Assembly (NCBI GenBank): GCA_964568195.1
Contig: CAZMPH010000005.1
Span: 1-36,653 of the forward strand
Direction of reading: 5' to 3'
Source: an uncultured Nitrospirales bacterium
Lineage (GTDB): Bacteria > Nitrospirota > Nitrospiria > Nitrospirales > NS-4
DNA: 36,653 nucleotides
Shown: positions 3,065 through 36,653 of the stretch, in pieces
Position numbering within the stretch: position 1 is the first letter of the stretch
Layout of the letters: every line of letters starts with the position of its first letter
Translations under genes and position numbers: made by a program
The notes under the pieces: model-generated
Databases searched by the model: none
Told to the model about the DNA's origin: nothing
Seen by the model: the letters and a program-made list of their open reading frames with translations, nothing else

Positions 3065-3065
3065 G

Positions 3066-4211: not shown

Positions 4212-4235
4212 GGCTCTTTCCTTCCAGTCATCCCG

Positions 4236-5072: not shown

Positions 5073-5076
5073 GGGG

Positions 5077-7874: not shown

Positions 7875-7882
7875 GCTGTCCT

Positions 7883-10373: not shown

Positions 10374-10375
10374 GG

Positions 10376-13114: not shown

Positions 13115-13989
13115 TGCGGCCTCCGCTTGCCGTACACTTTCAAACGATCCTTCATCTCGCTACTCCGCACGGACTGGGTCTGCGGATCATACAGGTACTG
13201 CCCACCGAACGGCTCGCGTGGCAATTCCCGCAGGAGACCGGCCTCCATCAGATCCTCCAACCGATCGGGCGCTCGCTTGTAACGCTCTCGGTACCGGCTG
13301 ACGGCCTCCTCGAGCAACTGGAGATCCCGTTCGACCACCACTTCCTTCAGACGCTGCTCCAAGACGCGTTTCACGTTCTCATCCGCGGTCTGGGCATACA
13401 TCTGGGCGAGAAAATCTATGGCGACTTGCGGTTCTCTGGCCGAGACATAGAGCCTGGTGGCAAATGGCGCGAGGTACTGGGGCGCCCCCGGAAGGCGGGA
13501 TGCCCTGGCGATATAGTCAGCCGCCTTGGCGTCATCGCGCAACTCGAAGTAGTAGTTGAACCCCAGCAAGAAGGGAAGCGCCCAGTAGTCGGGATTGTGC
13601 TGGATCCCTTTCTCCAATACCCGGTTGCTCTCCTCAACCAGAACCACCAGTGTCACCAGGGCAACGCCTCCGACCTCATAGACGCGCGTAAACTTGGGAT
13701 CCAATGTAGTGATGACATCCAACGCTCGGTAGATCCACTGACCGGCCTCTTCCATCACCTTGCGCTCGCCCATCGCCTGGATGGCCTGGATCCACAGGAA
13801 GTCCGCCACGACCTGCTCGTACCCCAACACCGCCACCCGGAGGTACTCGCCTTGCGGTAGGTACATGAACCGCTGCAGCTTGGGCGTGGCGGCCCGCTGC
13901 TGATCAAGCCGGGTCTGAATGAAGTACAGTCCCAGGATGAGGACCAACCCGGTCATCACCAGGACCTTCAGCCGCGCGGTCTCGCTCAT
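13111..13989 (-). CDS. Membrane-anchored helical (TPR-like) protein of unknown function
   Basis: A single N-terminal hydrophobic span (LKVLVMTGLVLILGLYFI) is followed by an alpha-helical repeat-like body. The internal ATG at 13989 (MSETARLKV) forms an ATGA overlap with the stop of the upstream Wzy_C-TPR gene. The C-terminal segment RAPDRLEDLMEAGLLRELPREPFGGQYLYDPQT resembles the YP..L..L...P.DPWG..Y.Y motif of T2SS major pseudopilins by eye only. Confidence 0.6.
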   Translation of the reverse strand: MSETARLKVLVMTGLVLILGLYFIQTRLDQQRAATPKLQRFMYLPQGEYLRVAVLGYEQVVADFLWIQAIQAMGERKVMEEAGQWIYRALDVITTLDPKFTRVYEVGGVALVTLVVLVEESNRVLEKGIQHNPDYWALPFLLGFNYYFELRDDAKAADYIARASRLPGAPQYLAPFATRLYVSAREPQVAIDFLAQMYAQTADENVKRVLEQRLKEVVVERDLQLLEEAVSRYRERYKRAPDRLEDLMEAGLLRELPREPFGGQYLYDPQTQSVRSSEMKDRLKVYGKRRPQ

Positions 13990-15953
13990 GGGACGGGCAC
14001 CATGGCCAGCGACTTCCGGAGGTGATCCGGATTCACTTCCAGATACTGGCGGTCCACGTTTGTCAAGTTCCACCCTCGGTAGCGTTCTTGAATCCTGAGA
14101 ATCTCCGCATACTCCCGCGCCGCGACTTCCTTCCGACCGAGTTCCAACGAGAGCTCGGCCAGCTGGGCACGGGCCGGCAGGAAATTCGGCTCGTAGCTCG
14201 TCGCGCGGCTGAACAAGGCTTGCGCCTCACCCAAGCGACCCTCGGCGCGGCGAAGCTTTCCCAGTTCAAGGTAGTTGAACGGCGAATAGGGATCCAACCG
14301 GATCGCTTGCTCATAGAAGGCCGCGGCCTTTTGCAGGAGCGCCTTGCGGTGCTCGCCGGAACCGGCGCGCTCGGCAAGCACAACATGGAGCGTGCCCAAG
14401 CGATGGGCAAACCGCCCATCCAGGGGATTCAGGTCCAACCCGATCATCAGCTCGTCCACCGCCTTGAGCACCCATTGCACCTCGCCGGATTGATGATACA
14501 ACCGAACCTCCGCCAGCGCCACCGCGTCACGGTAAGCGGCAAGGCCCGGCTCGATGACCGTGGCGCGGTGAAACCACTCCAAGGCAGCGCCCTCCCGGCC
14601 GAGCGTCGCTTCGTTTCCGCCCCTCTCAAAGGCATACCAGGCCGCCGGCGGCTGTATGATGAGCAGCGTCAGCGCAAGGGTCAAAACGCCGACCAGCGCC
14701 ACGCGCGCCGGAGCATAGGGAAACGGCAACACCCAAACAGGGGCATATTCCGGTTCCCTGAGCCGTTTCAACACCAGGATCAAGCCGGCAAATAGAAGCA
14801 TAAGCAAAACCAGTGCCGGTTCATGAAATACGGAGTCCACAGCCGCATGGACAAAAAAACCGAGAATCCCGCCCGACAAACCGACAACGAGCCCTCTTTC
14901 CCACGGCTCCAGGTTGCCTTTCAAGACCCCTCGGACTTCCCTGGCGAACAGCGTCGCCGCAGCCAGAAAAAGCCCCAGCCCCACGATTCCCAGTTCCGTC
15001 GCCATTTGAAGGTATTCGTTATGGGCGGATTCCGCCCGTTTCCCGTAGCGACTGATGGCGCCTTCGACGGGAAAGCGGTACTGGAATGACGTGTACTTGT
15101 AGAGACCCAGCCCTACTCCCCACGGATGATCGGCGATCCGCTGCAAGGAATTCTTCCAGATGTCCAGTCTGGTAAACGCATAGGGGTCCTTCGCTTCTAT
15201 CGTCAGGACACGCTGTTGCAAAGGCGTCGGAACCAGGGCCCCTGCCAGCAGGCACAACGCCAGGACACCCAGAAAAATCCTTCTGAACCGAGACAGGCCG
15301 ATAAAGGTCACAGCCGCCACGAACGCCAGCAACGCTCCCCTCGATTGGCCGAGGAGAAAGGCCAACCCGACGGCTCCCGCCGTGAACCAGAGAAAAAAGG
15401 ATTCCCGCTTGGAGTGATCGTTCTGCCGACGGTAACACAACAGGCCAAACACAACCGCGAACACAGCCACTTCATAGGCCGCAAAGAAATTGGCGTTGAA
15501 GAAGGTCCCGGTGGGTCTTTCCGGCACGGTCAAGACGTATTGATACACGCCGACCGCGGCTTCGAGCAATCCCACGATCAGGACAACCGCCACCAGCCTC
15601 CGTATCTGCTCGGCCGACTCTACAAGGTGCAGGACCACGAACAGCATGACCGCATACGTCAGGATGCTCAGCAACCCTTGCAGGCTCACGGCGGCGTAGG
15701 GAGAACGAAGCACGGAAAGAACGGCCCACCCCACAAACGCTCCGATCGCTAAGAAGAGGGGGCTGCGCCGCAGGGACAGCCCTCCTGACTTCATCGAGAA
15801 GAATACCCATGCCGTCACGGCGGCGAGAAGGATGAGGCGGATAACAAGGACCGGGAAGTAGGTGGTTCCGCCGTCAATCAGTGGCGCGAAGAGAGTGAGG
15901 CCACCCAAGACGACGAGTGGGCTATGGGCAAGAAAGGTTTTTCGGGCTGGCAT
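13986..15953 (-). CDS. O-antigen ligase / Wzy_C family polytopic membrane protein fused to a C-terminal TPR domain, 655 aa
   Basis: About 10-12 hydrophobic spans, with the Wzy_C-type loop GKRAESAHNEYLQMATELGIVGLGLF (conserved His). From about residue 430 onward there are TPR repeats (ALEWFHRATVIEPGLAAYRDAVALAEV..., AAFYEQAIRLDPYSPFNYLELGKLRRAEGRLGEAQALFSRATSYEPNFLPARAQLAELSLELGRKEVAAREY). Confidence 0.8.
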   Translation of the reverse strand: MPARKTFLAHSPLVVLGGLTLFAPLIDGGTTYFPVLVIRLILLAAVTAWVFFSMKSGGLSLRRSPLFLAIGAFVGWAVLSVLRSPYAAVSLQGLLSILTYAVMLFVVLHLVESAEQIRRLVAVVLIVGLLEAAVGVYQYVLTVPERPTGTFFNANFFAAYEVAVFAVVFGLLCYRRQNDHSKRESFFLWFTAGAVGLAFLLGQSRGALLAFVAAVTFIGLSRFRRIFLGVLALCLLAGALVPTPLQQRVLTIEAKDPYAFTRLDIWKNSLQRIADHPWGVGLGLYKYTSFQYRFPVEGAISRYGKRAESAHNEYLQMATELGIVGLGLFLAAATLFAREVRGVLKGNLEPWERGLVVGLSGGILGFFVHAAVDSVFHEPALVLLMLLFAGLILVLKRLREPEYAPVWVLPFPYAPARVALVGVLTLALTLLIIQPPAAWYAFERGGNEATLGREGAALEWFHRATVIEPGLAAYRDAVALAEVRLYHQSGEVQWVLKAVDELMIGLDLNPLDGRFAHRLGTLHVVLAERAGSGEHRKALLQKAAAFYEQAIRLDPYSPFNYLELGKLRRAEGRLGEAQALFSRATSYEPNFLPARAQLAELSLELGRKEVAAREYAEILRIQERYRGWNLTNVDRQYLEVNPDHLRKSLAMVPVP

Positions 15954-16053: not shown

Positions 16054-16551
16054 TTATTTTGCGACGTCGTTATTGGTGTTGGTCAGGTTTCTGACATCGT
16101 TGATGACAAACTCATCGCACGTGGCATCGCCGTCAATATTCGCCTGCGCGCCGGCCGTAAATCCGACTCCATTCGCCACGGAACCAGCCGGTACAACCCC
16201 GCCTGCAAAGGTGCCTCTATTAGTGAGGCATGCGCTTCCACCGGCGGACGGGGTAATCAAGAAACCCACGGCGTTCTGTCCGCCGTAGTAGAGGTCATAC
16301 CTGGAAGTTCCGGCGGGCTTGTAGCCGAGCGTGTCGGCGGTCGGCACGCTGAAGGTGTTGTTCTCGGCAAAATACGAGGTGGCGGTCGTGAAGATACCGC
16401 CGAGGTTCACCTTGGCTTCCGATTGCCGCGCTTTTGCTTGATAGGTTAGAAAGTTCGGGATGGCGATGGCCGCCAGAATCCCGATGATCGCCACCACGAT
16501 CATCAACTCGATCAAGGTGAAGCCCTGATCCCCTTTCATCCGTTTAAACAT
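16054..16551 (-). CDS. pilA: Type IV pilin (prepilin with an N-terminal cleavage/methylation motif), 165 aa
   Basis: MFKRMKGDQG|FTLIELMIVVAIIGILAAIAIPNF is a canonical class III signal (G-F, Glu+5). There are two Cys residues near the C-terminus (SACL...ATCDEF). A strong SD (AAGGAGG) lies 8 nt upstream of ATG 16551; the track start at 16554 is a GTG one codon upstream. Confidence 0.9.
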   Translation of the reverse strand: MFKRMKGDQGFTLIELMIVVAIIGILAAIAIPNFLTYQAKARQSEAKVNLGGIFTTATSYFAENNTFSVPTADTLGYKPAGTSRYDLYYGGQNAVGFLITPSAGGSACLTNRGTFAGGVVPAGSVANGVGFTAGAQANIDGDATCDEFVINDVRNLTNTNNDVAK

Positions 16552-16677
16552 CACTCAGTCCTCCTTGTCCCTAAAAGGTTTGCCCCTCGCGACCGTCCCC
16601 GCAACCGGCGGCGATCGCACCCCAATATCATCCTTAACTGTCCCCGCATCGGCAGGCACCGCTTAGATTTAAAGTAA

Positions 16678-16809: not shown

Positions 16810-17322
16810 CTATTTGGCAACGTCGTCCATCGTGTTTGACAGAGTTCTAATATCGTTGATGATCCAGTCATCGCAGGTGGAATCGGAGTCGACATTTCCT
16901 CTGGCGGCAGCCGTGAATGTACTTGGCGTCGCAGCCACAGGAGGTGGTCCCGGTGGAGCGACAGTTACATTGCAAGGAGCCGTCGCAGTGCTCCCACCGG
17001 GCAAGGCGGTAGGGGTGCCACCAATATCGTACCAATACGAATACTTCGGCGACCCGCTTATCACAAACTCAATAGGGGCGGTGCTTGAAAATTGGAGGCT
17101 TACCGGACTTTGCGCTTGCGAGGCAACCATTAATTTTGAAAACATGTCCCCAAGAACAAGCCTGGCCTCTGCCTGCCGGGCCTTGGCCTGATACCGCATG
17201 AAGTTCGGAATCGCGATCGCCGCCAGGATCCCGATGATCGCGACGACGATCATCAGTTCGATTAAGGTGAAGCCTGCCGACCCTTTCAACGAAAGGCCCG
17301 GCACGCGCGACGCTCTCCCCAT
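16810..17322 (-). CDS. Type IV pilin paralog, 170 aa, with a divergent central region rich in Ala/Pro/Ser/Thr
   Basis: ...SLKGSAG|FTLIELMIVVAIIGILAAIAIPNF. The C-terminal tail STCDDWIINDIRTLSNTMDDVAK matches ATCDEFVINDVRNLTNTNNDVAK of pilin 1. The track start at 17394 overlaps the sigma-54 promoter, so I use ATG 17322. A GTG at 17304 preceded by GGGAGAG is an alternative that gives an 11-aa leader. Confidence 0.85.
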   Translation of the reverse strand: MGRASRVPGLSLKGSAGFTLIELMIVVAIIGILAAIAIPNFMRYQAKARQAEARLVLGDMFSKLMVASQAQSPVSLQFSSTAPIEFVISGSPKYSYWYDIGGTPTALPGGSTATAPCNVTVAPPGPPPVAATPSTFTAAARGNVDSDSTCDDWIINDIRTLSNTMDDVAK

Positions 17323-17387
17323 GGACTCTAATTCACGTTCATCCAGCACTCGGCAGCTTAACCCCCTCGGCAGTACATACTCCGTTA

Positions 17388-17403
17388 AGCACACCGTCTG
17401 CCA
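17388..17403 (-). promoter_or_regulatory. Sigma-54 (-24/-12) promoter of pilin gene 2
   Basis: The minus strand reads TGGCAGACGGTGTGCT. GG and GC are at the canonical spacing, and the -12 element is GTGC instead of TTGC. It lies about 66 nt upstream of ATG 17322. Confidence 0.5.
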
Positions 17404-17536: not shown

Positions 17537-19525
17537 TCAGCGATGTGGAATTTCGAAGACATAGACACCGTTACTCGTGAACAACAGCTTCAGCGCCCCT
17601 GGCAAAGCCTTCAACCGGCGCGCGTTCATCTCGGCGTCAACGCCTGAAAACGCCAGCACCCCATACCCCTCATGCAGACGCCTGAATTCGCGGACGTTGA
17701 GCACCACGTGCGTGAATCCCTCTGCAACCAGCCTGTCTGCCAGTGCCTTCGGGGACGAAGACTCCTGCACCCAACGATGCAGCGGATGGCGGTCATACGC
17801 CGTAGGCGCCATCGCCTCGCGCGCGAAATAATACGGTCTGGATTCCCCGATAAAAAGAATGCGCGCATCAGGAGGAATGGTCTCCCGCACGAAACGGGCA
17901 GCGCTGAAATGATCCAGTTGCTTGGCCAAATACCGATCGGCGGTCTCCCGCCCAAGCGCGACGTCGTATGAAGAAAAGACCGCCGCATGCTGGTTAATGA
18001 ACCGCGCCGAACCTCCGATCCCGACAGGCAGGAACAGCAACAGCGCCACCACTGGGGCGGTTTGTCCGAGGCGCAACACCACCCCGACCAGCACAGCCAA
18101 CCCTATTGCCATCGCGGGCGCGAAGAACCTGGCGGTCGGAGAAACGGCTATCCAGCCTGCTCCCGCCACCAGCGCAAAGAGTGTCGCAGCGCCGCTCAAG
18201 CGGCACTCCTTTGCGCCGCCGCCGAACACCCGCGTGATCGCCGGCAAGATCACCAGCAGACACGTGGCCGCGACCGCCAGCACCCCCGCATCCGAAGCGG
18301 AACCGAAGCGTTCGGGATGTTGCACGAGATCCACCGGCAGGCGCAACAACCCCTCCCACCCCAACCCGCCCGTTCCATACGGCAGGGCCCCTTGCACTTT
18401 GGCTTGACTCTCCTCGCTCCAGGGAACACCACCGAGCAGACCGTACGCCAACGGATAGATGGGGTTGCCCGTGTGGACATAGGCCCACGCCCACCACGGC
18501 GCGATGGTCGCCACAACAATCACCAGCGATCGCCTGACGTCCCGCAACGGCCACCCGGCTGCGAGAGCGGCGACAAGCGCCGCTGCCGCCCAATACAACC
18601 CGGACAACTTGACTGAGGCCGCCAGTCCTAATACCAGCCCAAAGGACAACCAGGGTCTTCGCTCGGCTTGAGGAGCAACCAGGAGCACGGCAGCGATCAC
18701 GACCGCAAACGTCAAACCGGTTTCGGCAAACGGCACCGTCGCGAGAAACCAGAACATCGGCGACGTCGCCAGAGCCACAACGACGAGTGCCGCGGCCCAC
18801 GGCGCAGATCTGGGCCACGCGATCGCGTCGGCCACGCCCCAGACGCCAAGCACGCACATCACCCAGACAGCGAAAGCGGTCGCTCTGGCGCCGAGATCCC
18901 CTCCTAACGCCATGCCCCAGGCCAACAACAGATCCGAGGCATGCGGCATCAGTGTGAAAACAACCCACGGCTCGGCCCTGAGCCCACCGGTCACGAGTAC
19001 GCGCTGCGGTATGACCAGGTGATATTCCAGCTCATCAAAGAACGTGGGGGGAATCGTGGCCCACAACCAGGCCACCAGTAGCGCGCCGCCCATCATCAGG
19101 CCGCCGACTGTTTCCTGAAGGATTCCGCATGAGGGACGGAAGCGGAAGGCGGCGCGAAGGGCCAGGAGCAGTCCGTAAACAAGGAGCGGGAGCGCGGCGA
19201 TCCCGCTGACCCAGAAGACACCACACATCGCGCTCGACACGGCCAGCAGAGACAGACAGGCGAGCCCCACGCCGACTTGAACGGCCAAGCCGATCACGTG
19301 GGAATGTTCGGCTTCCCCGAAGAGTCCACCGCAGGCCCGGTCAACCAACGCGCCGGCCGCATAGGCCATGATCAGAAAAGAGGCTGGAATCGCCAATAGC
19401 CAGAGACGTGCCGCGTCCACCAACGCGGTCCCGAAGAGCACCACGGCAGATGAGATCAGCAGCGAGAGGCAGGGGGCCGGCCAGGCAGCACGCAAGTCAG
19501 CCCCTGCCGGAGGTGGATTAGGCAC
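17537..19525 (-). CDS. Polytopic membrane protein, putative GT-C-fold glycosyltransferase (ArnT/PMT-like), 662 aa
   Basis: More than 10 hydrophobic spans and a soluble C-terminal domain of about 150 aa. An acidic loop motif follows an early TM segment (IPPTFFDELEYHLVIP), reminiscent of the DE..Y / DxD first-loop motif of GT-C enzymes. GTG start with no clear SD, so the start is uncertain. Family assignment is by eye only. Confidence 0.55.
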   Translation of the reverse strand: MPNPPPAGADLRAAWPAPCLSLLISSAVVLFGTALVDAARLWLLAIPASFLIMAYAAGALVDRACGGLFGEAEHSHVIGLAVQVGVGLACLSLLAVSSAMCGVFWVSGIAALPLLVYGLLLALRAAFRFRPSCGILQETVGGLMMGGALLVAWLWATIPPTFFDELEYHLVIPQRVLVTGGLRAEPWVVFTLMPHASDLLLAWGMALGGDLGARATAFAVWVMCVLGVWGVADAIAWPRSAPWAAALVVVALATSPMFWFLATVPFAETGLTFAVVIAAVLLVAPQAERRPWLSFGLVLGLAASVKLSGLYWAAAALVAALAAGWPLRDVRRSLVIVVATIAPWWAWAYVHTGNPIYPLAYGLLGGVPWSEESQAKVQGALPYGTGGLGWEGLLRLPVDLVQHPERFGSASDAGVLAVAATCLLVILPAITRVFGGGAKECRLSGAATLFALVAGAGWIAVSPTARFFAPAMAIGLAVLVGVVLRLGQTAPVVALLLFLPVGIGGSARFINQHAAVFSSYDVALGRETADRYLAKQLDHFSAARFVRETIPPDARILFIGESRPYYFAREAMAPTAYDRHPLHRWVQESSSPKALADRLVAEGFTHVVLNVREFRRLHEGYGVLAFSGVDAEMNARRLKALPGALKLLFTSNGVYVFEIPHR

Positions 19526-19593: not shown

Positions 19594-21372
19594 CTACAAG
19601 GATTTCTTGGACTGCCTGTGCTGCGCTTTGCGGATCCGTTCATCGGCGGCCGGGTCCCAGAACCCCTTTGCCTTGAACCGATCCGTCAGCTTTCTGTTCG
19701 TCGGATCGAGCTCCAGCGAGCGAAGCCATGCTTCGCGGGCATCGGACAGGAGGTTATTGGTGAGACAGATTTCGCCGAGGTGCTCGAAGAACACGGGGTC
19801 GTCGTGCACCACGGCGACGGCTTGCTTCATCTCCTGAAGCGCTTCCTGCGACCGCCCCATCTTGAAATAGGCCCACGCCAGGCTGTCGAGGTAGTAGCCG
19901 TTCTGCGGCTTGACCGCGAGCGCCCGCTGAATCAGCACAACCGCCTCGTCCAGTCGCATGTCACGCTCCGCAAACGTATAGCCGAGATAGTTCAGGGCAT
20001 CGGCATGCTTGGGTTCCAACCGGATGGCTTCCTGCATCTCGCTGACCAGTTCGTCGAACCGCCCCAGCTTGTCATAGGCAGTGCCCAGGTTGAAGTGGAA
20101 GTCGGCGCTGTCGGGATGCCGCTGTAGCCCTTCGCGAAAGGTGGTGACCGCTTCTTCATGCCGCAACGCCTGCAGCAGGGCCAGGCCCAGCATGAGATAG
20201 GCATCCGGCAGCTTGGGATTCAGGGCGATCACCTGGCGAAAATGCGGCAGCGCCTCCTCGGTTCGCTTCAGGCGATACAGCAGATACCCGAGATGGAGGT
20301 GGGCATCGGCGAACCGCTCATCGGTCTGGATGATCGCCCCGTATTCCGCAATGGCTTTCTCGTAGTCCTTCATTTCCTCATAGAGGTAGGCCAAGTGGTC
20401 GCGCACCCGCAGTTCGTCCGGCCGCAGCGCCAGCACGAGTTTCATCTGCTCGACCGCTTTCGGGAACTCCTTCATTTCACCGTAAATCAGGCCGATGCGA
20501 AGCTGGGCCTCCACATCCCCGGGAGACTCCGCGACGGTCTCGCGCAACAAAGCAAGCGCCGGCTCATAGGCCTTCTGCGTCAACAGAATCCGGACCAGTC
20601 GGTGGCGCACTTCACGATTGCCCCGATTGATCTCCTGCAGATATTTTCGGAGCGTCGCAATGGCCTGCGCGGCATCGTCCTGGGCTTCGAGCGTCGCCGC
20701 CAACCCCAGATAGGCCGGGTCAAAGCCGGGATTGACGGCCAGGGCATCCCGATAGGCCTGCGCGGCCCGATCCCACGCCTTCTGCTCGACCAGTACGTGG
20801 CCGAGGTACAGATAGCCGGTCGGCGACGATACCGGCGACAGCGCGATGCCTTGACGGAGAATCCGCTCCGACTCCTCATACCGTTTTTGACCGGCCAGGA
20901 GCATGCCCATCGAATAATAGGCCTGCGCTTCCTGCGGCCGTAACGCCACGATCAGCTCGTAGTACCCGATCGCGCGATCGGAACGGCCCGTGGCCACAGC
21001 GACAGCGGCCAGGATGTTCAAGGCCGGGAGGCTGGCGGTGTCTTGGGCAAGCACTTCTTCGGCATGGGCCTGGGCTTTTCCATGCTCACCCCGGGTATGG
21101 TAGAGGGTCGCCAGGCGGAGGTGGAGCGCCACAGAGGCGGGATCAAGCGCAAGAGCCTTGTGGTACTCCTCCTGAGCCGTCCCGGCATCATTGGCCAGCT
21201 CGGCCTGGTACCCGCGCATGAAATGGTAGTAGGCCTGCGGGTCAGGGACTCGCTGCGATGGAGCGGCGGCGGCACCCCGTTCCGTGGCGTGAACAACAGA
21301 CGGGACGCCGACCGTCATGGCGGCCAGAAAGCAGCAAGCCCATCGGCTTAGTCGTAGAAAGGTAGTGGGCAT
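19594..21372 (-). CDS. Secreted tetratricopeptide-repeat protein, 592 aa
   Basis: Signal peptide MPTTFLRLSRWACCFLAAMTVGVPSVVHA|TE, followed by more than 12 TPR units (for example AQEEYHKALALDPASVALHLRLATLYHTRGEHGKAQAHAEEVL). I use ATG 21372, which is preceded by GGAGG at a 5-nt spacing. The track start at 21411 adds 13 residues before the signal-peptide n-region. Confidence 0.8.
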   Translation of the reverse strand: MPTTFLRLSRWACCFLAAMTVGVPSVVHATERGAAAAPSQRVPDPQAYYHFMRGYQAELANDAGTAQEEYHKALALDPASVALHLRLATLYHTRGEHGKAQAHAEEVLAQDTASLPALNILAAVAVATGRSDRAIGYYELIVALRPQEAQAYYSMGMLLAGQKRYEESERILRQGIALSPVSSPTGYLYLGHVLVEQKAWDRAAQAYRDALAVNPGFDPAYLGLAATLEAQDDAAQAIATLRKYLQEINRGNREVRHRLVRILLTQKAYEPALALLRETVAESPGDVEAQLRIGLIYGEMKEFPKAVEQMKLVLALRPDELRVRDHLAYLYEEMKDYEKAIAEYGAIIQTDERFADAHLHLGYLLYRLKRTEEALPHFRQVIALNPKLPDAYLMLGLALLQALRHEEAVTTFREGLQRHPDSADFHFNLGTAYDKLGRFDELVSEMQEAIRLEPKHADALNYLGYTFAERDMRLDEAVVLIQRALAVKPQNGYYLDSLAWAYFKMGRSQEALQEMKQAVAVVHDDPVFFEHLGEICLTNNLLSDAREAWLRSLELDPTNRKLTDRFKAKGFWDPAADERIRKAQHRQSKKSL

Positions 21373-21423
21373 GGCCGCCTCCGGAAGCATAACGCGAAGT
21401 TCGATGGACATTGCTCTCAGCGG

Positions 21424-29007: not shown

Positions 29008-29036
29008 TTGCCTCTTCGCCAGCCTGCGCCTAGAAT
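29008..29036 (+). promoter_or_regulatory. Candidate sigma-70 promoter (TTGCCT-17-TAGAAT) for the methyltransferase / YfhO operon
   Basis: -35 TTGCCT at 29008..29013, a 17-nt spacer, and -10 TAGAAT at 29031..29036. The GTG at 29048 is only 11 nt downstream of the -10 element and no SD is visible, so the transcript could be nearly leaderless. Alternatively, translation starts at ATG 29066. Confidence 0.4.
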
Positions 29037-29047: not shown

Positions 29048-29812
29048 GTGCAGACGCCGACGCCCATGACTGAATGCGAGCGCTTGACGGAAATCCTGCT
29101 GAGCCTGGATAAGATCGAGAAGTACTACCAGTGGATCGGCGAGGAAGCCCACCCGTTCCTCGGAGACCGCCTCGTGGAAATCGGCGCCGGCATCGGCACA
29201 TTCACCAACGTGCTCGTGCGCGGCCACGTATCACGCTGCCCGACCGTCCGGCTGGCCGTCTTCGAACCGGAACGCACTCTTTTCCGGTTGTTGCAGGAGC
29301 GAATGGAGCACAGGTACCCGGAGCTGCTGCGTGCAGGCCGCGTGGTCGCAACCAACGGATATTTTCACGCGCCTCCCGAACAGTTCGACACCGTCGTCAT
29401 GATCAACGTCCTGGAGCACATCGAGGATGATCAGGACGCGATCCGTGCGGCGTATCACGCGCTGGCTCCGGGAGGCGCCTGCATCGTCTTCGTGCCGGCC
29501 CTCTCCTGGCTTTACAGCGCGCTGGACCGGTCGGTCGGCCATTATCGGCGATATGAGCGGACGCAGTTGGAACAGATCATGCGGGCAGGCGGATTCGAAG
29601 TCGTCGCGGCAAAATATATGGACTGCCTGGGAGTGCTGCCTTGGTACCTGCTGAACGTCATCGGCGGTTCCACATCCATCAATCCTCGCCTGGCACGCTT
29701 CTACGACAGGTGGTTCGTTCCGGTCACGCGATGGATCGAGCAATTTGGGCCTCCACGGATCGGAAAAAACATTCTGATCGTGGCGCGCAAGAATGCTCCG
29801 AACGCGCCGTAG
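29048..29812 (+). CDS. Class I SAM-dependent methyltransferase
   Basis: Motif I in LVEIGAGIGTFTNVL, then FDTVVMINVLEHIEDD and LAPGGACIVFVPAL. GTG start at 29048, with an alternative ATG at 29066. The stop lies 3 nt before the first YfhO-family gene. Confidence 0.8.
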   Translation: MQTPTPMTECERLTEILLSLDKIEKYYQWIGEEAHPFLGDRLVEIGAGIGTFTNVLVRGHVSRCPTVRLAVFEPERTLFRLLQERMEHRYPELLRAGRVVATNGYFHAPPEQFDTVVMINVLEHIEDDQDAIRAAYHALAPGGACIVFVPALSWLYSALDRSVGHYRRYERTQLEQIMRAGGFEVVAAKYMDCLGVLPWYLLNVIGGSTSINPRLARFYDRWFVPVTRWIEQFGPPRIGKNILIVARKNAPNAP

Positions 29813-29815
29813 CGC

Positions 29816-32227
29816 ATGATGGGATTGCAGATGTCCGCCCCGACCATGCCCGCGCCTGAGACCAGCCCAACCCCTTCAAACGCATTCCTCGCGCGGGTCC
29901 GATCGTCCCGATGGCTGCCGATCGCCGTGCTCGCCGCTGTCGTCCTGGCGTTCTACCACGGGCTCTGGTGGCCGGGCCTGGCGCTCGTCAAGCGCGACGC
30001 CCTGCGCTTCTTTCTTCCGATCAAGCAGTATCTCGTCGAGCGGCTCTCGGCCGGCGAGTTGCCGGAATGGTTTCCCTATGATGCGCTGGGCCGTCCGTTC
30101 ATCGGCGCCACCCACACCGGCGTCTTTCATCCCTTCACGGCACTCTATTTCCTCCTGCCCACGCATGACGCTTATCGCGTCTCGATTCTGCTGTCCTGCC
30201 TGTTGGCGGCACTCGGCGCCTTTACTCTGGGACGTCTCCTGCGCTTTTCACGAACCGGCGCCCTGCTTGCCGGTCTTGCCTTTGCGCTGTCGGGCTACAT
30301 CGTCTCGCTCACCGAGAACATTCAATACCTGTATCCAATCTGCATGTTGCCGTTCTTTTGCGCCGCGCTCGAGAAGACCCTGACGGCGCAGCGCGCCTGG
30401 GTGGTCGCCCCCGCGCTGATCTGGGCGACGGTGTTTCTCAACGGCGACATCCAAACCGGGTACTACTACGGCTTCATTGCGCTGGCCTGGACGAGCGCGC
30501 GAGCCCCGTATTCTCTGCGCGAAGCTTGGCTCCGCCTGGCGCTCACGGGAGGCCTGGCGATTCTACTGGCAGGGATACAGCTTGGCCCGTCATGGACGGT
30601 CTTTATCGGCAGTGAGCGCACGCGCCCGGACGCCTACCTCGAACAGGCTCTGTTCTGGTCCACCCATCCCCTGCGCCTGCTCACGGTCCTGGCCGCACCA
30701 GTGGCCGAGCACGAGAGCCCGGTACTCGTGGCCCGCACGTTCTTTGGTATTCCGGCTGCAGGCTTCCTGGTGGACAGTCTTTACCTCGGCGTCCCGGTGG
30801 TGGGCTTGGCCCTGCTCGGCACCTGGATTCGCCGGGACTTGCGGGTGTTGGCCCTCCTGGGCGGCATTGCCCTCGTTCTCGCGCTTGGCCGGTACGGCGG
30901 CCTCTACGAGCTGTTCTACCACGTGGTGCCTCTCTGGTCGGCGTTCCGCTTCCCGGAGAAGTTCATGGGCGTGGTCTCGTTCGCCGCCGCCATGCTGGCA
31001 GGCGCCGGTCTCGATGCGCTGCGCGAAAGAAACAACCCACTGGTCCCCTGGCTGGCCATGGCGATGCTGTGCACGACCGCCGGATTCGTGCTGCAGACCG
31101 AGGCCGCCGCCGGATGGACGGCAGCGCACTTCGGCGCCTCGCCGGGTCTAGCACACGACGCCACCAGTTCCACCGCCCGCGCCCTTCACTACAGCGGCGC
31201 TGCGACTCTGTGCGTATGGCTTCTCGCGTATGGGATGCGCCTGCAAGCCCTGCGGGAGACGGTCGCGTTGCCCCTTCTGATCCTGCTCGTTGTGCTCGAC
31301 CTGGGCCGCGCCAACCTCGGGGCCTACCACACCGGACCCTCTGAGGCCGCCACGTTCGTGCCGCCCCTCGTCGAGGCGGTCAAGGCCCAGGAGGGAACCC
31401 TGGCGCCCGGACGGTTTCGTCTGGTCTCCACCTTCGAACATGTCCTCGTATGGCCGGAAGACCTCCTGCAACCGTTGGGCTTCCACGGCGCCGGATCGGT
31501 GGAGCGCCGTCAGGCCCTCGATCTGGAATACAACGCGACGTTCCACCTCGAAAGCGTCATGCCTTATCTGGCCGGGTACAGCACCCAACTGGCCGAGACC
31601 CTGAACCAGCGGATGGCGTTCGCAGCCGCGGCTCGTTTCAATGTGGTCTATTACGTCGGTCGGCGCTATCGCCTGAAGGGGCCGCGGCTCGCCCCCATGC
31701 TAGTGGCTCAACTCCCGCCTTACGACCTCGCGCTCTTCCGCAACCCGGTCCCCGCCAAACCACGCGCGTATCTGTCGTGGCGACCGGAACGGGCCGAAAA
31801 ACCGGTCGAACCTGCGGCCCTGTTCGCAAGGCCGGATTTCCTGAGCGGCGATGTGGATGTGATCGAAACGTCGGACCGGACGCTGCCAGGCCCCGCGACA
31901 GGGGGGCACGCGCGAATCGAGCGCTACGCCCCGGAAGAAGTCCGAGTCAGCGTGGAGACCCCGCAACCGGCTGTTCTGCTTCTGTTGGATTCCTTCGTCA
32001 AGGGATGGCTGGCGACCCTCGAGAGCGGCGTCGAACTCCCCATCATGCGGGCCAACGTACTGGTGCGCGCAGTGGTCGTGCCGGCCGGCACGCACGTCGT
32101 CACGTTCTCCTACCCTACTCCGCTGCTTGTGGCCGGGGCTGGGGCATCCTCGGCAGGCTTGCTCATTTGCGCCGGCCTCGTCATCCAGGCCAGACGGGGA
32201 ACAGGCCGGCTCGCGAGCCGCCCATGA
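29816..32227 (+). CDS. YfhO-family polytopic membrane protein (GT-C-like glycosyltransferase), paralog 1, 803 aa
   Basis: N-terminal signature KRDALRFFLPIKQYLVERLSAGELPEWFPYDALGRPFIGATHTGVFHPF. Many TM spans. The C-terminal beta-rich part, LLLLDSFVKGWLATLESGVELPIMRANVLVRAVVVPAGTHVVTFSYPTP, matches the characteristic YfhO tail pattern (..GW.A.vdG..v.i.ran..frgv.vpaG.H.V.f.Y.P). Confidence 0.8.
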   Translation: MMGLQMSAPTMPAPETSPTPSNAFLARVRSSRWLPIAVLAAVVLAFYHGLWWPGLALVKRDALRFFLPIKQYLVERLSAGELPEWFPYDALGRPFIGATHTGVFHPFTALYFLLPTHDAYRVSILLSCLLAALGAFTLGRLLRFSRTGALLAGLAFALSGYIVSLTENIQYLYPICMLPFFCAALEKTLTAQRAWVVAPALIWATVFLNGDIQTGYYYGFIALAWTSARAPYSLREAWLRLALTGGLAILLAGIQLGPSWTVFIGSERTRPDAYLEQALFWSTHPLRLLTVLAAPVAEHESPVLVARTFFGIPAAGFLVDSLYLGVPVVGLALLGTWIRRDLRVLALLGGIALVLALGRYGGLYELFYHVVPLWSAFRFPEKFMGVVSFAAAMLAGAGLDALRERNNPLVPWLAMAMLCTTAGFVLQTEAAAGWTAAHFGASPGLAHDATSSTARALHYSGAATLCVWLLAYGMRLQALRETVALPLLILLVVLDLGRANLGAYHTGPSEAATFVPPLVEAVKAQEGTLAPGRFRLVSTFEHVLVWPEDLLQPLGFHGAGSVERRQALDLEYNATFHLESVMPYLAGYSTQLAETLNQRMAFAAAARFNVVYYVGRRYRLKGPRLAPMLVAQLPPYDLALFRNPVPAKPRAYLSWRPERAEKPVEPAALFARPDFLSGDVDVIETSDRTLPGPATGGHARIERYAPEEVRVSVETPQPAVLLLLDSFVKGWLATLESGVELPIMRANVLVRAVVVPAGTHVVTFSYPTPLLVAGAGASSAGLLICAGLVIQARRGTGRLASRP
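31010..31111 (+). repeat. 102-nt tract nearly identical to 35769..35870 (copy A, inside YfhO paralog 1)
   Basis: Hand alignment at a constant offset of 4759 nt gives 101/102 identical bases, with the single mismatch at 31075 (g versus a at 35834). It encodes LDALRERNNPLVPWLAMAMLCTTAGFVLQTEAAA in both paralogs. Confidence 0.85.
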
Positions 32228-34605
32228 TCCCCTCGTCACCGCCGGAGAGATCTACCTCCGCTTCGGCGTCCGCCCGGCCCCCCGCGCCAACCGGTCCGGC
32301 GGTCGCGATCCTCTGTGGCATCATCCTGGCCTTCTATCATGATCTCTGGTTGCCTGGCCTGGTGCTCATCCAACGCGACGCGTTCCGGTTTCACCTCCCC
32401 CTCAAGCACTATCTCGTGGAACGGCTTTCGGCCGGCGAATTCCCCCAATGGTTTCCCTACGACGCACTGGGCCGTCCGTTCATCGGCGTGACGGCCACGG
32501 GGGTCTTTCATCCGTTCACCCTGCTGTATTTCCTTTTTCCCGCGCATGACGCCTACCGCGCCGCGACACTCCTCTCCTGCCTGCTGGCGGGCCTCGGCGC
32601 TTTCGCACTGGGTCGCCGGCTTCGCTATTCGCACGCCGGCGCGCTCGTCGCCGGCCTCGCGTTCGCGCTGTCCGGCTATGTCGTCTCGCTTACCAACAAC
32701 ATCGTGTATCTGTACTCACTCTGCGCGCTGCCGCTTTTTTGCGCCGCCCTCGAGAAGGCTCTCACGGCGCCACGCGTCTGGGCAATCGCCCCTGCCGCCG
32801 TCTGGGCGACGGTGTTTCTCAACGGCGACATCCAGACGGGATACTACTACGGCTTCATCGCGCTGGTCTGGATCGGGGCGCGCGCGCCTGGCTCCCTCCG
32901 AGACGCAGGACTGAAGCTGGCGCTGGCCGCCGCGCTGGCGGCCCTGCTCGCCGGGATTCAACTGGGACCCGCCGCAGCCGTCTTCCTGGGAAGCGATCGC
33001 GCGCAATCCGAAACGCTCCACGAAGAAGCGCTGCACTGGTCCACCCACCCGCTTCGGCTGGTGGGGTTGGCGGCCTCGCCGATCGTCACGACCACCGACT
33101 CGGTGGAACTGGGAAATTTTTTCTTCGGCAGCCCGGACTACGGCCTGTGGGCGGAGAGCCTCTACATGGGCGTCCCGGTCCTGGGGTTGGCGTTGCTCGG
33201 CGCCCGGCACCGTCCCGACTTGCGTGTGCTGGCGCTGCTCGCGCTCCTCGCGCTGTTCCTCGCGCTCGGCCGGTTCGGCTGGCTCTACGAGGTGTTCTAC
33301 AAGGTGGTGCCCCTGTGGTCGGCCTTCCGGTTCCCCGAGAAATTCATAGGCATTGTGCTGTTCGCAGTCGCGATGCTCGCGGGAGCGGGGCTCGACGCCC
33401 TGCGGCAGGGGAAAGGCGGCCCGCTGCCCTGGCTGGCGATCGCAGGCCTCTGTGCGGGCGCCGGCGCAGGGCTTCGCATGGACGGCGCGAGCCTGTGGAC
33501 AGCCGCACGCTTCGGGGCGCCGCTGGACATGGCCCGCGACGTGACGGGAACAGCCGGACTCGCCCTGTTCTCCAGCGCTGCTGTCGCGCTCGCCATGGGA
33601 CTGATTCTCGCCGGCGTCCGCCGAGGGCACCTCCGCGAGACGCTGGCACTTGGCGCCGTCGTGGCGCTCATCGTCGTGGACCTCGCCCGCGCCAACCTGG
33701 CAGTCTGTCACACCGGCCCGGCCGAGGCCGCGACGTTCATGCCTTCGCTCGCGGATGCCATCCGGGCGCGCGAGGGGACGCTCTCTCCAGGCCGCTTCCG
33801 CCTGCTCTCGTTGCGTCACGCCGATTACGTGGCGCCCGCATCGGTCCGCCAGGCGTTCGGCCACGACGCGGAGATTGTGGAACGCCGCCAGGCCCTCGAT
33901 GTGGCGCACAACGCCCAGTTCCACCTCGAATCATTTTTCGATTATCTGCCAGGCCGGAACGCGCGGCTCAAGGCCATGATGCCGTACATGGTCCGGATAG
34001 ACAGGGCGGCACGGTTCAACGTGGCCTACTACATCGCCCGCCGGGCCCAATTCCGGAACGCTTCTTTCGCCGGCGCGGTGGTGGCAGAACTCCCCGACTA
34101 TGACCTTGCGCTCGCCCGTAACCCCCTTCCCGTTAAGCCACGCGCTTATCTGTCCCGGCAGCCGGAACACGCCGCCTTTCCGTTCGACCCCGTTGCCCTG
34201 CTCAAACGACCGGATTTTCTGAACGGAGAGGTGGATGTGATTGAGGCGCCCAACGCCACCCTGCCGGGGCCTGCCGGGACGGGACAGGCGGCCATCGAGC
34301 GGTACGAGCCGGAACTGGTCCGGGTGTCCGTGGAAACTCCGCAACCCGCTGTCCTGATCCTGCTCGACGCGTTCGACAAGGGCTGGACCGCCAGGCTCGA
34401 AACGGGCGAGGACGTCCCCATCATGAGGGCGAACGCACTGGTACGGGCAGTGGTGGTGCCGGCCGGCGCGCATGTCGTCACGTTTTCCTACCAGACGCCC
34501 CTGCTGAAAGCCGGTGCGTGGGCGTCTTTGACCGGCGTTCTCCTGTGCATCGGCTTGATTGTGCGCGCGCGCCGGCGGCCCCGCCGCACAGAGAGTGGCG
34601 CCTGA
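32224..34605 (+). CDS. YfhO-family polytopic membrane protein, paralog 2, 793 aa
   Basis: Same motifs as paralog 1: QRDAFRFHLPLKHYLVERLSAGEFPQWFPYDALGRPFIGV; WATVFLNGDIQTGYYYGF; ILLDAFDKGWTARLETGEDVPIMRANALVRAVVVPAGAHVVTFSYQTP. The track ORF (31450..34605) carries a 258-aa out-of-context extension that overlaps paralog 1. ATG 32224 forms an ATGA overlap with the paralog 1 stop. Confidence 0.8.
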   Translation: MIPSSPPERSTSASASARPPAPTGPAVAILCGIILAFYHDLWLPGLVLIQRDAFRFHLPLKHYLVERLSAGEFPQWFPYDALGRPFIGVTATGVFHPFTLLYFLFPAHDAYRAATLLSCLLAGLGAFALGRRLRYSHAGALVAGLAFALSGYVVSLTNNIVYLYSLCALPLFCAALEKALTAPRVWAIAPAAVWATVFLNGDIQTGYYYGFIALVWIGARAPGSLRDAGLKLALAAALAALLAGIQLGPAAAVFLGSDRAQSETLHEEALHWSTHPLRLVGLAASPIVTTTDSVELGNFFFGSPDYGLWAESLYMGVPVLGLALLGARHRPDLRVLALLALLALFLALGRFGWLYEVFYKVVPLWSAFRFPEKFIGIVLFAVAMLAGAGLDALRQGKGGPLPWLAIAGLCAGAGAGLRMDGASLWTAARFGAPLDMARDVTGTAGLALFSSAAVALAMGLILAGVRRGHLRETLALGAVVALIVVDLARANLAVCHTGPAEAATFMPSLADAIRAREGTLSPGRFRLLSLRHADYVAPASVRQAFGHDAEIVERRQALDVAHNAQFHLESFFDYLPGRNARLKAMMPYMVRIDRAARFNVAYYIARRAQFRNASFAGAVVAELPDYDLALARNPLPVKPRAYLSRQPEHAAFPFDPVALLKRPDFLNGEVDVIEAPNATLPGPAGTGQAAIERYEPELVRVSVETPQPAVLILLDAFDKGWTARLETGEDVPIMRANALVRAVVVPAGAHVVTFSYQTPLLKAGAWASLTGVLLCIGLIVRARRRPRRTESGA

Positions 34606-36653
34606 TGCCCCCACCCTCCACAGCAACGCCCGCCACCACACCGGGGCTCCTTGCCCGGATCACGTCGCCGACAGGGCTCGCGGCGGCGGCCCTGTGCGGC
34701 ATCGTCCTGGCGTTCTACCACGGCCTCTGGCTGCCCGGCCTCGTGCTCATCAAGCGCGATGCCTTCCGCCTCTTTCTTCCCATCAAGCAACACCTTATCC
34801 AGCGGCTTTCCACAGGCGAACTGCCGCAATGGTTCCCTTATGACGCGCTGGGCCGCCCCTTCATCGGAGCAACACATACTGGCGTGTTCCACCCTTTCAA
34901 TGTGCTCTATTTCATCCTCCCTGCACCGGATGCGTATCGTGCTTCGATCCTGATCTCGTGCTTGCTGGCTGCCATGGGTGCCTTTGTCCTCAGCCGTAAG
35001 CTCCTTCTTTCACCACCTGGTGCCCTGCTCGCGGGTGTTGTATTTGCGCTTTCAGGCTATATCGTGTCTTTTACCGAGAACATTCACTTCCTGTACTCGA
35101 TCAGTGCGCTGCCTTTTTTTTGCGTTGCTCTTGAAAAGGCCCTCACGGAACGATACGCATGGACGGTCGCTCCTGCGGCCATCTGGGCCACGGTATTTCT
35201 CAACGGCGACGTGCAGACGGGCTACTACTACGGCTTCGTTGCGCTGGTTTGGGCACTGGCACGCACAACGAATTCCTACCAACAAACAATTGTCCGGCTG
35301 GCCCTCTCAGGAACACTAGCGGTTCTGCTCGCTGGCGTTCAGCTCGGGCCGGCATGGGGGGTCTTCCATGGCAGCGAACGCATCCATCCGGACGAATTTC
35401 TTGAGCAAGCCATGTCCTGGTCCACCCACCCGCTTCGGTTGGTCACGGTGCTGGCCTGGCCGGTGGCCACGCACGTCAGCCCGGTTCTCGTCGCCCGGAC
35501 TTTCGGGATTCCCACCACAGGATTCCTAGCGGAGAGCCTCTACCTCGGAATCCCTGTGATGGGATTGGCCCTGCTCGGAACGTGGCATCGCCGCGATCTG
35601 CGAATACTGGCCTGGCTCGGTGGCGTTGCCCTGCTGCTGGCACTTGGACGATACGGTGGCCTCTACGAAATCTTCTACCACGTGGTGCCCCTCTGGTCCG
35701 CGTTCCGATATCCGGAGAAGCTGATGAGCATCGTTTTCTTCGCCGCCGCAATGCTGGCAGGCGCTGGACTCGATGCGCTGCGCGAAAGAAACAACCCACT
35801 GGTCCCCTGGCTGGCCATGGCGATGCTGTGCACAACCGCCGGATTCGTGCTGCAGACCGAGGCCGCCGCCGCATGGACGACTGCACACTTCGGGGCAGCG
35901 CCGGGTTTGGCTCATGAGATCACAAGTTCGGTTGCCATCGCCTTTCTGTACAGCGCGGCGGCCACGCTTGGCACGTGGCTGATCGCGGCCGGCGTCCAGA
36001 AACAAGTAATGCGGGAAGCGGTTGCGATCCCCTTGTTGGTGCTGCTCGTCGCGCTCGATCTGGCACGCGCCAATCTAGGGGCTTACCACACCGGGCCCTC
36101 CGAGGCCGCAACCTTCATTCCGCCTCTCGCCGAGGCGATCAAGGCCCAGGAAGGGCCGTTGACTCCGGGACGTTTCCGCCTAGTCGCTACACACGAGGAA
36201 ATGGTCGGCTGGCCTGAAGATCTCGCTCGCACCGTTGGCTACTACGGCGCCCTGTCCATCGAACGGCGTCAGGCGCTCGACGTCCTACACAACGCAGCTT
36301 ATCAGCTAGAGAGCATCATGCCTCAGTTGGCCGGATACAGCCCACAGTTTGCTGAAACTTTGCGCCACGGGATGAGTTTGGGGGCCGCTGCACGTTTCAA
36401 CGTGACCTATTATATCAGCCGGCGTTACCATTTAAGGGGCCCCACTCTCTCTCGTATGATCGTGGCCGAGCTACCGCCCTATGACTTGGTGCTATTCCGC
36501 AACCCCGTCCTTCCCAAGCCACGCGTCTACCTGTCAAAGAAACCCGAGCGGTCTGTAAAGCCGGTCGATCCGGCAGTCCTGTTCGCGAGACCCGACTTCC
36601 TGAACGGAGAAGTGGACGTGATCGAAACGTCAGCCCTGACGTTGCCCGGTCCC
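34605..36653 (+). CDS. YfhO-family polytopic membrane protein, paralog 3, 5' part (683 codons); runs off the right edge
   Basis: Absent from the ORF track (no stop in the window). My translation from ATG 34605 reads MPPPSTATPATTPGLLARITSP...IKRDAFRLFLPIKQHLIQRLSTGELPQWFPYDALGRPFIGATHTGVFHPF...WATVFLNGDVQTGYYYGF...RPDFLNGEVDVIETSALTLPGP and stays open to 36653. It is collinear with paralogs 1 and 2. The start overlaps the paralog 2 stop as TGATG. Confidence 0.8.
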   Translation, partial: MPPPSTATPATTPGLLARITSPTGLAAAALCGIVLAFYHGLWLPGLVLIKRDAFRLFLPIKQHLIQRLSTGELPQWFPYDALGRPFIGATHTGVFHPFNVLYFILPAPDAYRASILISCLLAAMGAFVLSRKLLLSPPGALLAGVVFALSGYIVSFTENIHFLYSISALPFFCVALEKALTERYAWTVAPAAIWATVFLNGDVQTGYYYGFVALVWALARTTNSYQQTIVRLALSGTLAVLLAGVQLGPAWGVFHGSERIHPDEFLEQAMSWSTHPLRLVTVLAWPVATHVSPVLVARTFGIPTTGFLAESLYLGIPVMGLALLGTWHRRDLRILAWLGGVALLLALGRYGGLYEIFYHVVPLWSAFRYPEKLMSIVFFAAAMLAGAGLDALRERNNPLVPWLAMAMLCTTAGFVLQTEAAAAWTTAHFGAAPGLAHEITSSVAIAFLYSAAATLGTWLIAAGVQKQVMREAVAIPLLVLLVALDLARANLGAYHTGPSEAATFIPPLAEAIKAQEGPLTPGRFRLVATHEEMVGWPEDLARTVGYYGALSIERRQALDVLHNAAYQLESIMPQLAGYSPQFAETLRHGMSLGAAARFNVTYYISRRYHLRGPTLSRMIVAELPPYDLVLFRNPVLPKPRVYLSKKPERSVKPVDPAVLFARPDFLNGEVDVIETSALTLPGP
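35769..35870 (+). repeat. 102-nt tract nearly identical to 31010..31111 (copy B, inside YfhO paralog 3)
   Basis: See copy A. In the 60 nt immediately downstream I counted only 40/60 identities, so the tract stands out sharply from the paralog background. Confidence 0.85.

Follow-up and report, generated by a model that had tools for sequence, protein, structure and literature searches.

A variable tandem array of YfhO-type glycosyltransferase genes in an uncultured soil Nitrospirales bacterium, and its link to type IV pilin loci in relatives

YfhO enzymes have, to our knowledge, been studied in Firmicutes only. In this report we focused on a 36,653-nt stretch of DNA from an uncultured, diderm soil bacterium of the Nitrospirales (contig CAZMPH010000005.1 of assembly GCA_964568195.1; hereafter the window), in which the gene for a class I S-adenosylmethionine (SAM)-dependent methyltransferase is followed by at least three intact, co-oriented YfhO-type genes, P1, P2, and P3 (Table 1). 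The C terminus of P3 and possible further copies fall beyond the end of the window. The methyltransferase stop codon (TAG, 29810-29812) is separated by 3 nt from the P1 ATG at 29816, while the next two junctions are overlaps, ATGA at 32224-32227 between P1 and P2 and TGATG at 34603-34607 between P2 and P3. An earlier note on this DNA, made from its letters alone, had given these four genes and their junctions, read the layout as operon-like, and called the first product a SAM methyltransferase. All of this is borne out by the sequence and by matches of the first product to class I SAM models (Methyltransf_23, 55 bits). A P2 start at 31450, from a mechanical list of open reading frames (ORFs), was discarded because the paralog alignment puts the start at 32224. 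The single candidate promoter that the same note had placed ahead of the operon is present as a promoter-like site, but it carries little weight, its position being the sole argument for it: one such match was found in 28100-36653, the number expected by chance from shuffled sequence being 1.1. Promoter and terminator scans gave nothing informative.

The first important finding is that all three copies are YfhO-family proteins for which a GT-C glycosyltransferase fold is well supported by modeling. As the earlier note had supposed, each copy scores above the gathering cut-off of PF09586 (28.5 bits). The matches fall mainly in the N-terminal half of that model, the C-terminal end of which is matched in a 31%-identical relative (L014), and scores against the NCBIfam model for PgfM1 are 17-28 bits for a cut-off of 1400. 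Sequence searches of the PDB with P2 alone and with a 108-sequence profile yielded no usable solved relative. An AlphaFold2 model of P2 built on 66 homologues (mean predicted local distance difference test score [pLDDT] 80.5, predicted template modeling score [pTM] 0.83) consists of a helical transmembrane (TM) core (residues 24-494), a mixed, β-rich periplasmic domain (~495-757), a last TM helix (759-784), and an Arg-rich tail, the positive charge of which fits a periplasmic location of the C-terminal domain. Each paralog is accordingly modeled as a membrane enzyme that combines ~13 TM helices with a C-terminal domain in the periplasm and a TM anchor at the very end. In a Foldseek search of the PDB, the significant matches of the P2 model, at a probability of at least 0.9, were all to GT-C enzymes, namely AftD (E 8e-7), EmbB, STT3/PglB, AftA, ALG12, Pmt4, DPY19, and AftB, except that the set also includes two GPI-transamidase chains (7w72_U and 9ub7_B; probability 0.91). 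An exhaustive HMMER search retrieved 30,842 representative clusters at E ≤1e-3, 10,920 at ≤1e-10, and 721, counted at 50% identity, at ≤1e-30.

Residue conservation, assessed over 108 full-length relatives of 26-61% identity, shows five invariant columns and 30 more conserved at ≥90%. These include R51, D52, W76, H96, D202, and the F368, R369, P371, and K373 of an FRxPEK loop, as well as D715, G720, W721, R741, and H750 in the C-terminal part. The acidic residue of the first loop stands out: R51-D52 is near-invariant in the 108 relatives, D52 is invariant in the 66 close relatives, and the pair is present in P1, P2, and P3 as a single Asp (RDA), not a literal DXD; D202 is a second near-invariant Asp. 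By analogy with the family, D52 in the first periplasmic loop of P2, D202, and the basic FRxPEK loop are the likely catalytic residues. Since all 35 conserved columns are kept in the three window copies apart from W309 (P2 numbering), replaced by Leu in P1 and P3, each copy looks catalytically competent.

The three proteins are collinear, with a mean column identity of 75%, and are paralogs well beyond what chance would give. Identity to P1 is 61% for P2 and 72% for P3, and both the alignment and a tree place P1 and P3 closer to each other than either is to P2, in agreement with the collinear tandem paralogs, P2 being the more diverged, that had been described from the sequence. Four of the five motifs listed there as invariant are exact; the first is slightly off, because P3 reads RDAFRL, not RDA.RF. 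A codon-level comparison gives ratios of nonsynonymous to synonymous divergence (dN/dS) of 0.28 for P1 versus P2 and 0.17 for P1 versus P3 (0.17-0.28 overall), with a synonymous divergence (dS) between copies of 1.1-1.6, which indicates that the duplicates are old and all under purifying selection. P1 and P3 share a patch with 97-100% nucleotide identity, versus ~70% elsewhere, which is probably a gene-conversion tract. A neighbor-joining tree of 34 copies is star-like within the clade, with little one-to-one orthology between genomes. This suggests birth-and-death turnover, by which the paralogs would have evolved from an old tandem duplication. The copies differ mostly in one periplasmic loop and in the first half of the periplasmic domain, suggesting that they may act on different acceptor sites or use different donors, and three specificities for the three paralogs are plausible. 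It is very improbable that the copies are just duplicates, redundant or decaying, with no functions of their own. The gene-conversion patch and a frameshifted first copy in one relative (L012) could be read in this way, but all three window copies are intact, with conserved residues kept, low dN/dS, and saturated dS, and such arrays persist across many genomes.

Comparison with relatives (numbered L002 and so on, the closest loci all coming from Nitrospirales or Nitrospirae metagenome-assembled genomes) shows that the array recurs at the same chromosomal site with two to at least six copies. The order at this site is DnaB, a HisZ-like gene, SerA, an aminotransferase, SLT/LysM, a tetratricopeptide repeat (TPR) protein, the methyltransferase with the YfhO copies, and a class I/II aminotransferase. 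The methyltransferase is followed by two copies in L090, four in L062, L063, and L075, and five in L017 and L004, while L002 and L089 have at least six, bounded by contig ends. Arrays headed by a methyltransferase homologue of 59-89% identity are found in L002, L004, L006, L012, L017, L062, L063, L071, L075, L081, L085, L090, L093, and L097. Other enzymes are found between YfhO copies: an FkbM-type methyltransferase in L018 and L071, a GT2 in L085, and a GT9 (heptosyltransferase family) in L086 and L097. The triple array, which the earlier note took to suggest an undescribed system, is therefore not unique; it is one local state of a variable module common in one uncultured clade of soil and groundwater Nitrospirales. 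In L070, four YfhO copies lie around the TPR gene, directly upstream of two pilin genes, which is an independent, in-place expansion. Two loci deserve a comment on gene integrity. The apparently broken first copy in L004 is not a pseudogene, as the break is a 100-N scaffold gap, and the first copy in L012 (5180-7554) is split into two frames, either a frameshift pseudogene or an assembly error. In a metagenomic protein of 1616 aa (P0136), three segments align with the query, and the protein may consist of two fused YfhO units.

The second significant finding is an apparent tie, seen in gene neighborhoods, of this YfhO subfamily to type IV pilin loci. This tie is previously unreported; our literature searches turned up no article that links YfhO to pilins or to the pili of Nitrospira. 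The nine single-copy Nitrospirota loci that include downstream sequence (L007, L009, L010, L064, L067, L079, L080, L088, and L091) all have YfhO in a block composed of DnaB, YfhO with a large TPR protein before or after it, one to three type IVa pilins (pilA), a Wzy_C protein with TPR, an unknown protein, and an ATP-binding cassette (ABC) ATPase together with the membrane protein that partners it. In Myxococcaceae (L014, L020, and others), 137 nt separate the end of the YfhO gene from pilA, which is followed by homologues of the same ABC genes, with PilR/PilS nearby. Among more distant relatives, 33 single-copy metagenomic loci with at least 1 kb of downstream sequence were collected in a scan that used an 11-sequence alignment, the broad alignment being too diverse. 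A type IVa pilin gene lies within 3 kb downstream on the same strand in 19 of them, and within 500 nt in 16 of these. After de-replication and addition of four single-copy genome loci, a pilin link is seen in 15 of the 28 clusters formed at 90% identity and in 7 of the 16 formed at 50%, and one further cluster has PilR/PilS adjacent. The rate expected by chance is ~1%, which is an estimate from the few pilin genes per genome and not a computed figure.

The window has a pilin locus of its own, ~10 kb from the array (Table 1), which is the same block as in the relatives except that the slot between the TPR and pilin genes holds a 662-aa membrane protein and not YfhO. Its two pilins, one with a Ser/Thr/Pro-rich stretch, are candidate acceptors, through a link to the array that rests on synteny in relatives. 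The 662-aa protein has no Pfam hit, its relatives bear a faint DUF8201 label, and a PDB sequence search with its profile found nothing usable. That it might be a diverged YfhO was ruled out by BLASTP and by hhalign to the YfhO profile, which found no similarity. Its AlphaFold2 model (pLDDT 85, pTM 0.87) finds ArnT as the best Foldseek match (E 6e-7), followed by DPY19, AglB/STT3, AftB, and PglB, and an invariant D164 with a near-invariant E165 forms a DE pair after an early TM helix; this protein is thus predicted to be a fourth GT-C, unrelated to YfhO. Its homologues occupy the same slot in L101 and are found between the SLT and TPR genes, beside the array, in L005/L018, L006, L012, and L063. 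Two unrelated GT-C families thus swap positions in a conserved, pilin-centered neighborhood of 25 kb, which is the main reason why we rank a pilus-related acceptor first. Downstream of the pilins, the Wzy_C protein with C-terminal TPR shows a weak NCBIfam match to a putative O-glycosylation ligase and is in the same position in every Nitrospirota pilin locus examined. In Pseudomonas aeruginosa, TfpO/PilO has the same position downstream of the pilin, which makes the window Wzy_C protein a candidate pilin O-oligosaccharyltransferase.

Table 1. Position and strand of the array genes and of other features of the window
Feature	Coordinates	Strand	Remarks
Class I SAM-dependent methyltransferase, 254 aa, operon gene 1	29048..29812	+	GTG start; Pfam Methyltransf_23/12/11
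P1, YfhO-family GT-C paralog 1, 803 aa	29816..32227	+	PF09586 34.9 bits
P2, YfhO-family GT-C paralog 2, 793 aa	32224..34605	+	PF09586 69.8 bits
P3, YfhO-family GT-C paralog 3, first 683 aa, cut by window end	34605..>36653	+	PF09586 31.3 bits
Promoter-like site TTGCCT-17-TAGAAT	29008..29036	+	In 134-nt gap between divergent TPR gene and methyltransferase gene
P1 side of near-identical P1/P3 patch, ~115 nt	31000..31115	+	P3 partner ~35760-35875
Predicted fourth GT-C-fold membrane protein, 662 aa, DUF8201-like	17537..19525	-	AlphaFold2 and Foldseek; directly upstream of pilins
Type IVa pilin gene with Ser/Thr/Pro-rich stretch	16810..17394	-	Pfam N_methyl/Pilin_PilA, motif scan
Type IVa pilin gene	16054..16554	-	Pfam N_methyl/Pilin_PilA, motif scan
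Wzy_C (O-antigen ligase/O-oligosaccharyltransferase family) with C-terminal TPR	13986..15953	-	Wzy_C 73.8 bits; directly downstream of pilins
Large TPR protein	19594..21411	-	Flanks YfhO in single-copy Nitrospira loci
Unknown 320-aa protein, ABC ATPase, and ABC-2 membrane protein	11418..14073	-	After pilin/Wzy_C genes
Glycan gene cluster including Wzm/Wzt	875..11407	-

What would supply the sugar is suggested by accessory genes in relatives. The earlier note had seen neither of the partners known from characterized YfhO systems in the window, in agreement with our Pfam scan, which found no GT2 or GtrA among ORFs of at least 150 aa, a limit that a gene of GtrA size could escape. Neither the window nor the flanking DNA of the examined arrays yielded a flippase of the GtrA or Wzx type, which could be encoded elsewhere in the genome. 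The expected GT2 does occur beside or inside the array in two relatives. In the Nitrospira locus L008, the gene for a GT2 of 247 aa shares a 4-nt overlap with the gene for a methyltransferase 48% identical to that of the window, the pair being divergent from the YfhO gene, and the GT2 inside the L085 array is 41% identical to it. The best NCBIfam matches of these two GT2s, all with scores below the curated cut-off, are AglJ, PpgS, ArnC, dolichyl-phosphate hexose transferase, and PgfS, each of which loads a sugar on polyprenyl phosphate. The classical logic of a GT2 working with a GT-C therefore probably applies, the donor pathway being supported only through relatives. The methyltransferase itself appears to be functionally tied to the YfhO genes, a notion supported by its conserved adjacency, by the GT2-methyltransferase pair of L008, and by a metagenomic protein of 1021 aa (P0450) in which a class I methyltransferase domain, 30% identical to the window enzyme, follows YfhO at the C terminus. 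Lying after the last TM helix, that domain would be cytoplasmic. In addition, L090 encodes (13981-15408), 3.7 kb downstream of its two-copy array and after biotin-synthesis-like genes, a 475-aa protein in which Methyltransf_23 is fused to an AglJ-like GT2 domain; the window methyltransferase is only distantly related to the methyltransferase half of this fusion and to the other methyltransferase in the window. Attempts to derive the substrate of the window enzyme from named matches (UbiG, CpaM, and others) were dropped, as the scores were far below threshold. In L008, a Mutator-family transposase gene (6201-7406, minus strand) lies ~0.9 kb downstream of the single YfhO gene.

Taken together, these observations lead us to favor tentatively, with confidence somewhat short of even, a model in which the operon encodes periplasmic GT-C enzymes that use lipid-phosphate sugars and have diversified by duplication, with a pilin or another product of the pilus/glycan locus as acceptor. 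A cytoplasmic SAM methyltransferase would be produced together with at least three active YfhO-type paralogs, each of which, as expected from the family, would accept a monosaccharide from its polyprenyl-phosphate carrier at the periplasmic side of the membrane. The lipid-linked donor would come from an AglJ/ArnC/PpgS-like GT2 encoded elsewhere in the genome, and the sugar may be methylated by the methyltransferase. As judged from the conserved neighborhood, the most likely acceptor would be a type IV pilin or some other product of the neighboring pilus/glycan locus, and the array would serve to decorate and diversify the pilus surface.

Several points weigh against this model. About half of the single-copy clusters are without a pilin link, and the homologues in the cultured myxobacteria Melittangium boletus and Corallococcus sp. 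M7 are not beside pilA. None of the methyltransferase-headed arrays in the Nitrospirales clade has a pilin gene directly downstream, and in the window housekeeping genes stand between the array and the pilins. The Foldseek TM-scores for P2 are modest (0.3-0.43), and the top structural matches are polysaccharide-building arabinosyltransferases, not protein glycosyltransferases. The Pfam scan described above revealed neither a GT2 nor a flippase in the window. Finally, the GT9 inside the L086 and L097 arrays and the nearby Wzm/Wzt cluster fit a lipopolysaccharide (LPS) or polysaccharide acceptor equally well.

This last point leads to the reading put forward in the earlier note, in which the copies add side-chain sugars to an envelope glycan exposed to the periplasm (LPS O-antigen or core, or exopolysaccharide), each with its own donor or acceptor, much as in Gtr-type or teichoic acid glycosylation. 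We consider this possible, if rather doubtful. Characterized YfhO proteins do modify glycopolymers (PMC5836110, PMC8035078), FkbM-type methyltransferases are typical of glycan clusters, and the β-rich periplasmic domain is reminiscent of the carbohydrate-binding modules in AftD/Emb; the heptosyltransferase-family gene within two arrays and the sugar-modifying genes that accompany the ABC transporter of the window cluster point in the same direction. However, the array is not adjacent to the glycan cluster, the gene consistently linked to YfhO in single-copy relatives is pilA and not a glycan gene, and the cluster flanks the pilin locus, so that it could feed pilin glycosylation through the Wzy_C protein. 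A protein acceptor, the pilin, is at least as likely as the glycan decoration proposed in the earlier note, in view of the strongest clue from context, which that note had not raised, namely the presence of the subfamily at pilin loci in Nitrospira and part of the Myxococcota, and of the proximity of the window's own pilin locus with its fourth, non-homologous GT-C.

Comparison with known systems highlights important similarities and differences. In Firmicutes, YfhO works with CsbB and GtcA to add N-acetylglucosamine to teichoic acids (PMC5836110, PMC8035078), and in streptococci PgtC2 and PgfM1, of the YfhO family, O-glycosylate Ser/Thr-rich protein regions (10.1101/2024.05.05.592596). The window proteins resemble Firmicutes YfhO, PgtC2, and PgfM1-M2 in matching PF09586, in their predicted GT-C fold, in the large extracytoplasmic C-terminal domain followed by a terminal TM helix, and in the first-loop Asp. 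The polyprenyl-phosphate-type GT2 partner is likewise shared, here in relatives, and Streptococcus mutans has two YfhO paralogs in one operon (pgfM1 and pgfM2). In contrast to the Firmicutes systems, the host is diderm and lacks teichoic acids, Firmicute-based models give low scores, the tandem arrays of two to at least six copies are new, a methyltransferase is at the head of the operon, the window has no adjacent GT2 or GtrA, and the subfamily is tied to type IV pilin loci, which is unreported for YfhO. The streptococcal enzymes, together with a Bacteroidota YfhO predicted to be the general protein O-oligosaccharyltransferase (2026 preprint, 10.64898/2026.07.27.740950), serve as precedents for another alternative, namely that the array O-glycosylates many Ser/Thr-rich periplasmic or surface proteins and not the pilin specifically. 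The position of the array away from pilA in this clade would fit such a broadened target range, but the link of single-copy relatives to pilin genes suggests one specific partner and no target proteins were identified, and we regard this alternative as improbable.

A precedent for pilin glycosylation is TfpW from P. aeruginosa, a pilA-linked GT-C which adds arabinose to the pilin and depends on a GtrA-like protein (10.1101/2020.04.19.049825). As in single-copy relatives of the window array, this GT-C, found with group IV pilins, is encoded beside the major pilin gene; it uses a polyprenyl-phosphate sugar donor, and the resulting glycosylation protects against pilus-specific phages. The differences are nevertheless substantial. 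TfpW belongs to a different GT-C family, modeled on ArnT and with a C-terminal TPR, and is single-copy and encoded downstream of pilA, whereas the YfhO copies have a β-rich C-terminal domain without TPR and find their best folds in AftD/EmbB and not in ArnT. Adjacency to the major pilin is seen in single-copy relatives and in L070 only, and not for the window array. TfpW is thus an analogue and not a relative, and in fold the 662-aa GT-C of the window is closer to it than the YfhO copies are.

The best structural matches of the P2 model come from the mycobacterial EmbC-EmbA-EmbB/AftD enzymes, which are also tandem GT-C paralogs with periplasmic C-terminal domains. This raises the possibility of an assembly line in which each copy would form one linkage of an outer or periplasmic glycan from polyprenyl-phosphate monosaccharides, perhaps as hetero-oligomers. 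The tandem arrangement of the emb genes (10.1101/2020.04.19.049825) and the translational coupling of the window genes would agree with this scenario, which we nonetheless judge to be unlikely. There is no sequence homology to Emb/Aft, and the resemblance appears to be in fold only. The window contains no genes of the DprE1/DprE2/UbiA type and none for a decaprenyl-phosphate-arabinose type of donor. While the emb set is fixed, the array varies from one to at least six copies among close relatives with no stable orthologous set, unlike a fixed pathway, and a single copy suffices in Nitrospira. A further parallel is the GtrA-GtrB-Gtr* system for O-antigen glucosylation, in which a GT2 makes the lipid-phosphate sugar, a flippase translocates it, and a polytopic transferase acts in the periplasm, serotype diversity resulting from variable transferases. 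Here too there are differences, since the Gtr transferases are of another family, no GtrA/GtrB is found in the window, and the array is chromosomal at a fixed site whereas Gtr systems are phage-borne.

The array is not a new type of system. It is an expanded, variable, methyltransferase-headed module of YfhO-type GT-C enzymes in a diderm. Our analysis shows a large, collinear YfhO subfamily in diderms that recurs beside type IV pilin genes in two phyla. Its expansion in one Nitrospirales clade has produced variable tandem arrays whose accessory enzymes differ, an example of a gene family turning over rapidly at a surface-modification locus. The pilin link offers a concrete acceptor hypothesis for an uncharacterized family, and DUF8201-like proteins can be assigned a predicted GT-C fold. 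The organisms that carry the arrays are uncultured, the homologues found in cultured myxobacteria are without the pilin link, and the loci with YfhO directly upstream of pilA come from metagenome-assembled genomes and metagenomes. A broader scenario, which is possible but which we would rather doubt, is that this subfamily is an unrecognized lineage of type IV pilin glycosyltransferases of diderms, in which arrays and methyltransferases give combinatorial, strain-specific pilus glycoforms in soil Nitrospirales, providing surface variation against pilus-specific phages or predators, the DUF8201-like GT-C having taken the role next to pilA.

Other genes around the window pilins can be described briefly. 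The unknown protein, ABC ATPase, and ABC-2 membrane protein that follow the pilin and Wzy_C genes also follow pilA in the Myxococcaceae locus L014, and are reminiscent of PilG/H/I of Myxococcus xanthus. The glycan cluster encodes a heparinase II/III-like protein, a radical SAM/SPASM enzyme, a methyltransferase, a GT4, Wzt with Wzt_C, and Wzm, together with a UDP-GlcNAc 2-epimerase, a hexapeptide acetyltransferase, and a GFO/IDH/MocA oxidoreductase, the last three of which we take to resemble the Wbp pathway for 2,3-diacetamido sugars. Next to it, a frame of ~299 aa runs off the left end of the window (1-~880, minus strand) and looks by eye like the N-terminal part of a GT4-type glycosyltransferase. 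The DnaB ORF (21449-23155, minus strand; 568 aa) overlaps the next gene by ~300 nt, while DnaB in relatives has 465 aa, and its true start is probably further downstream than the mechanical ORF start.

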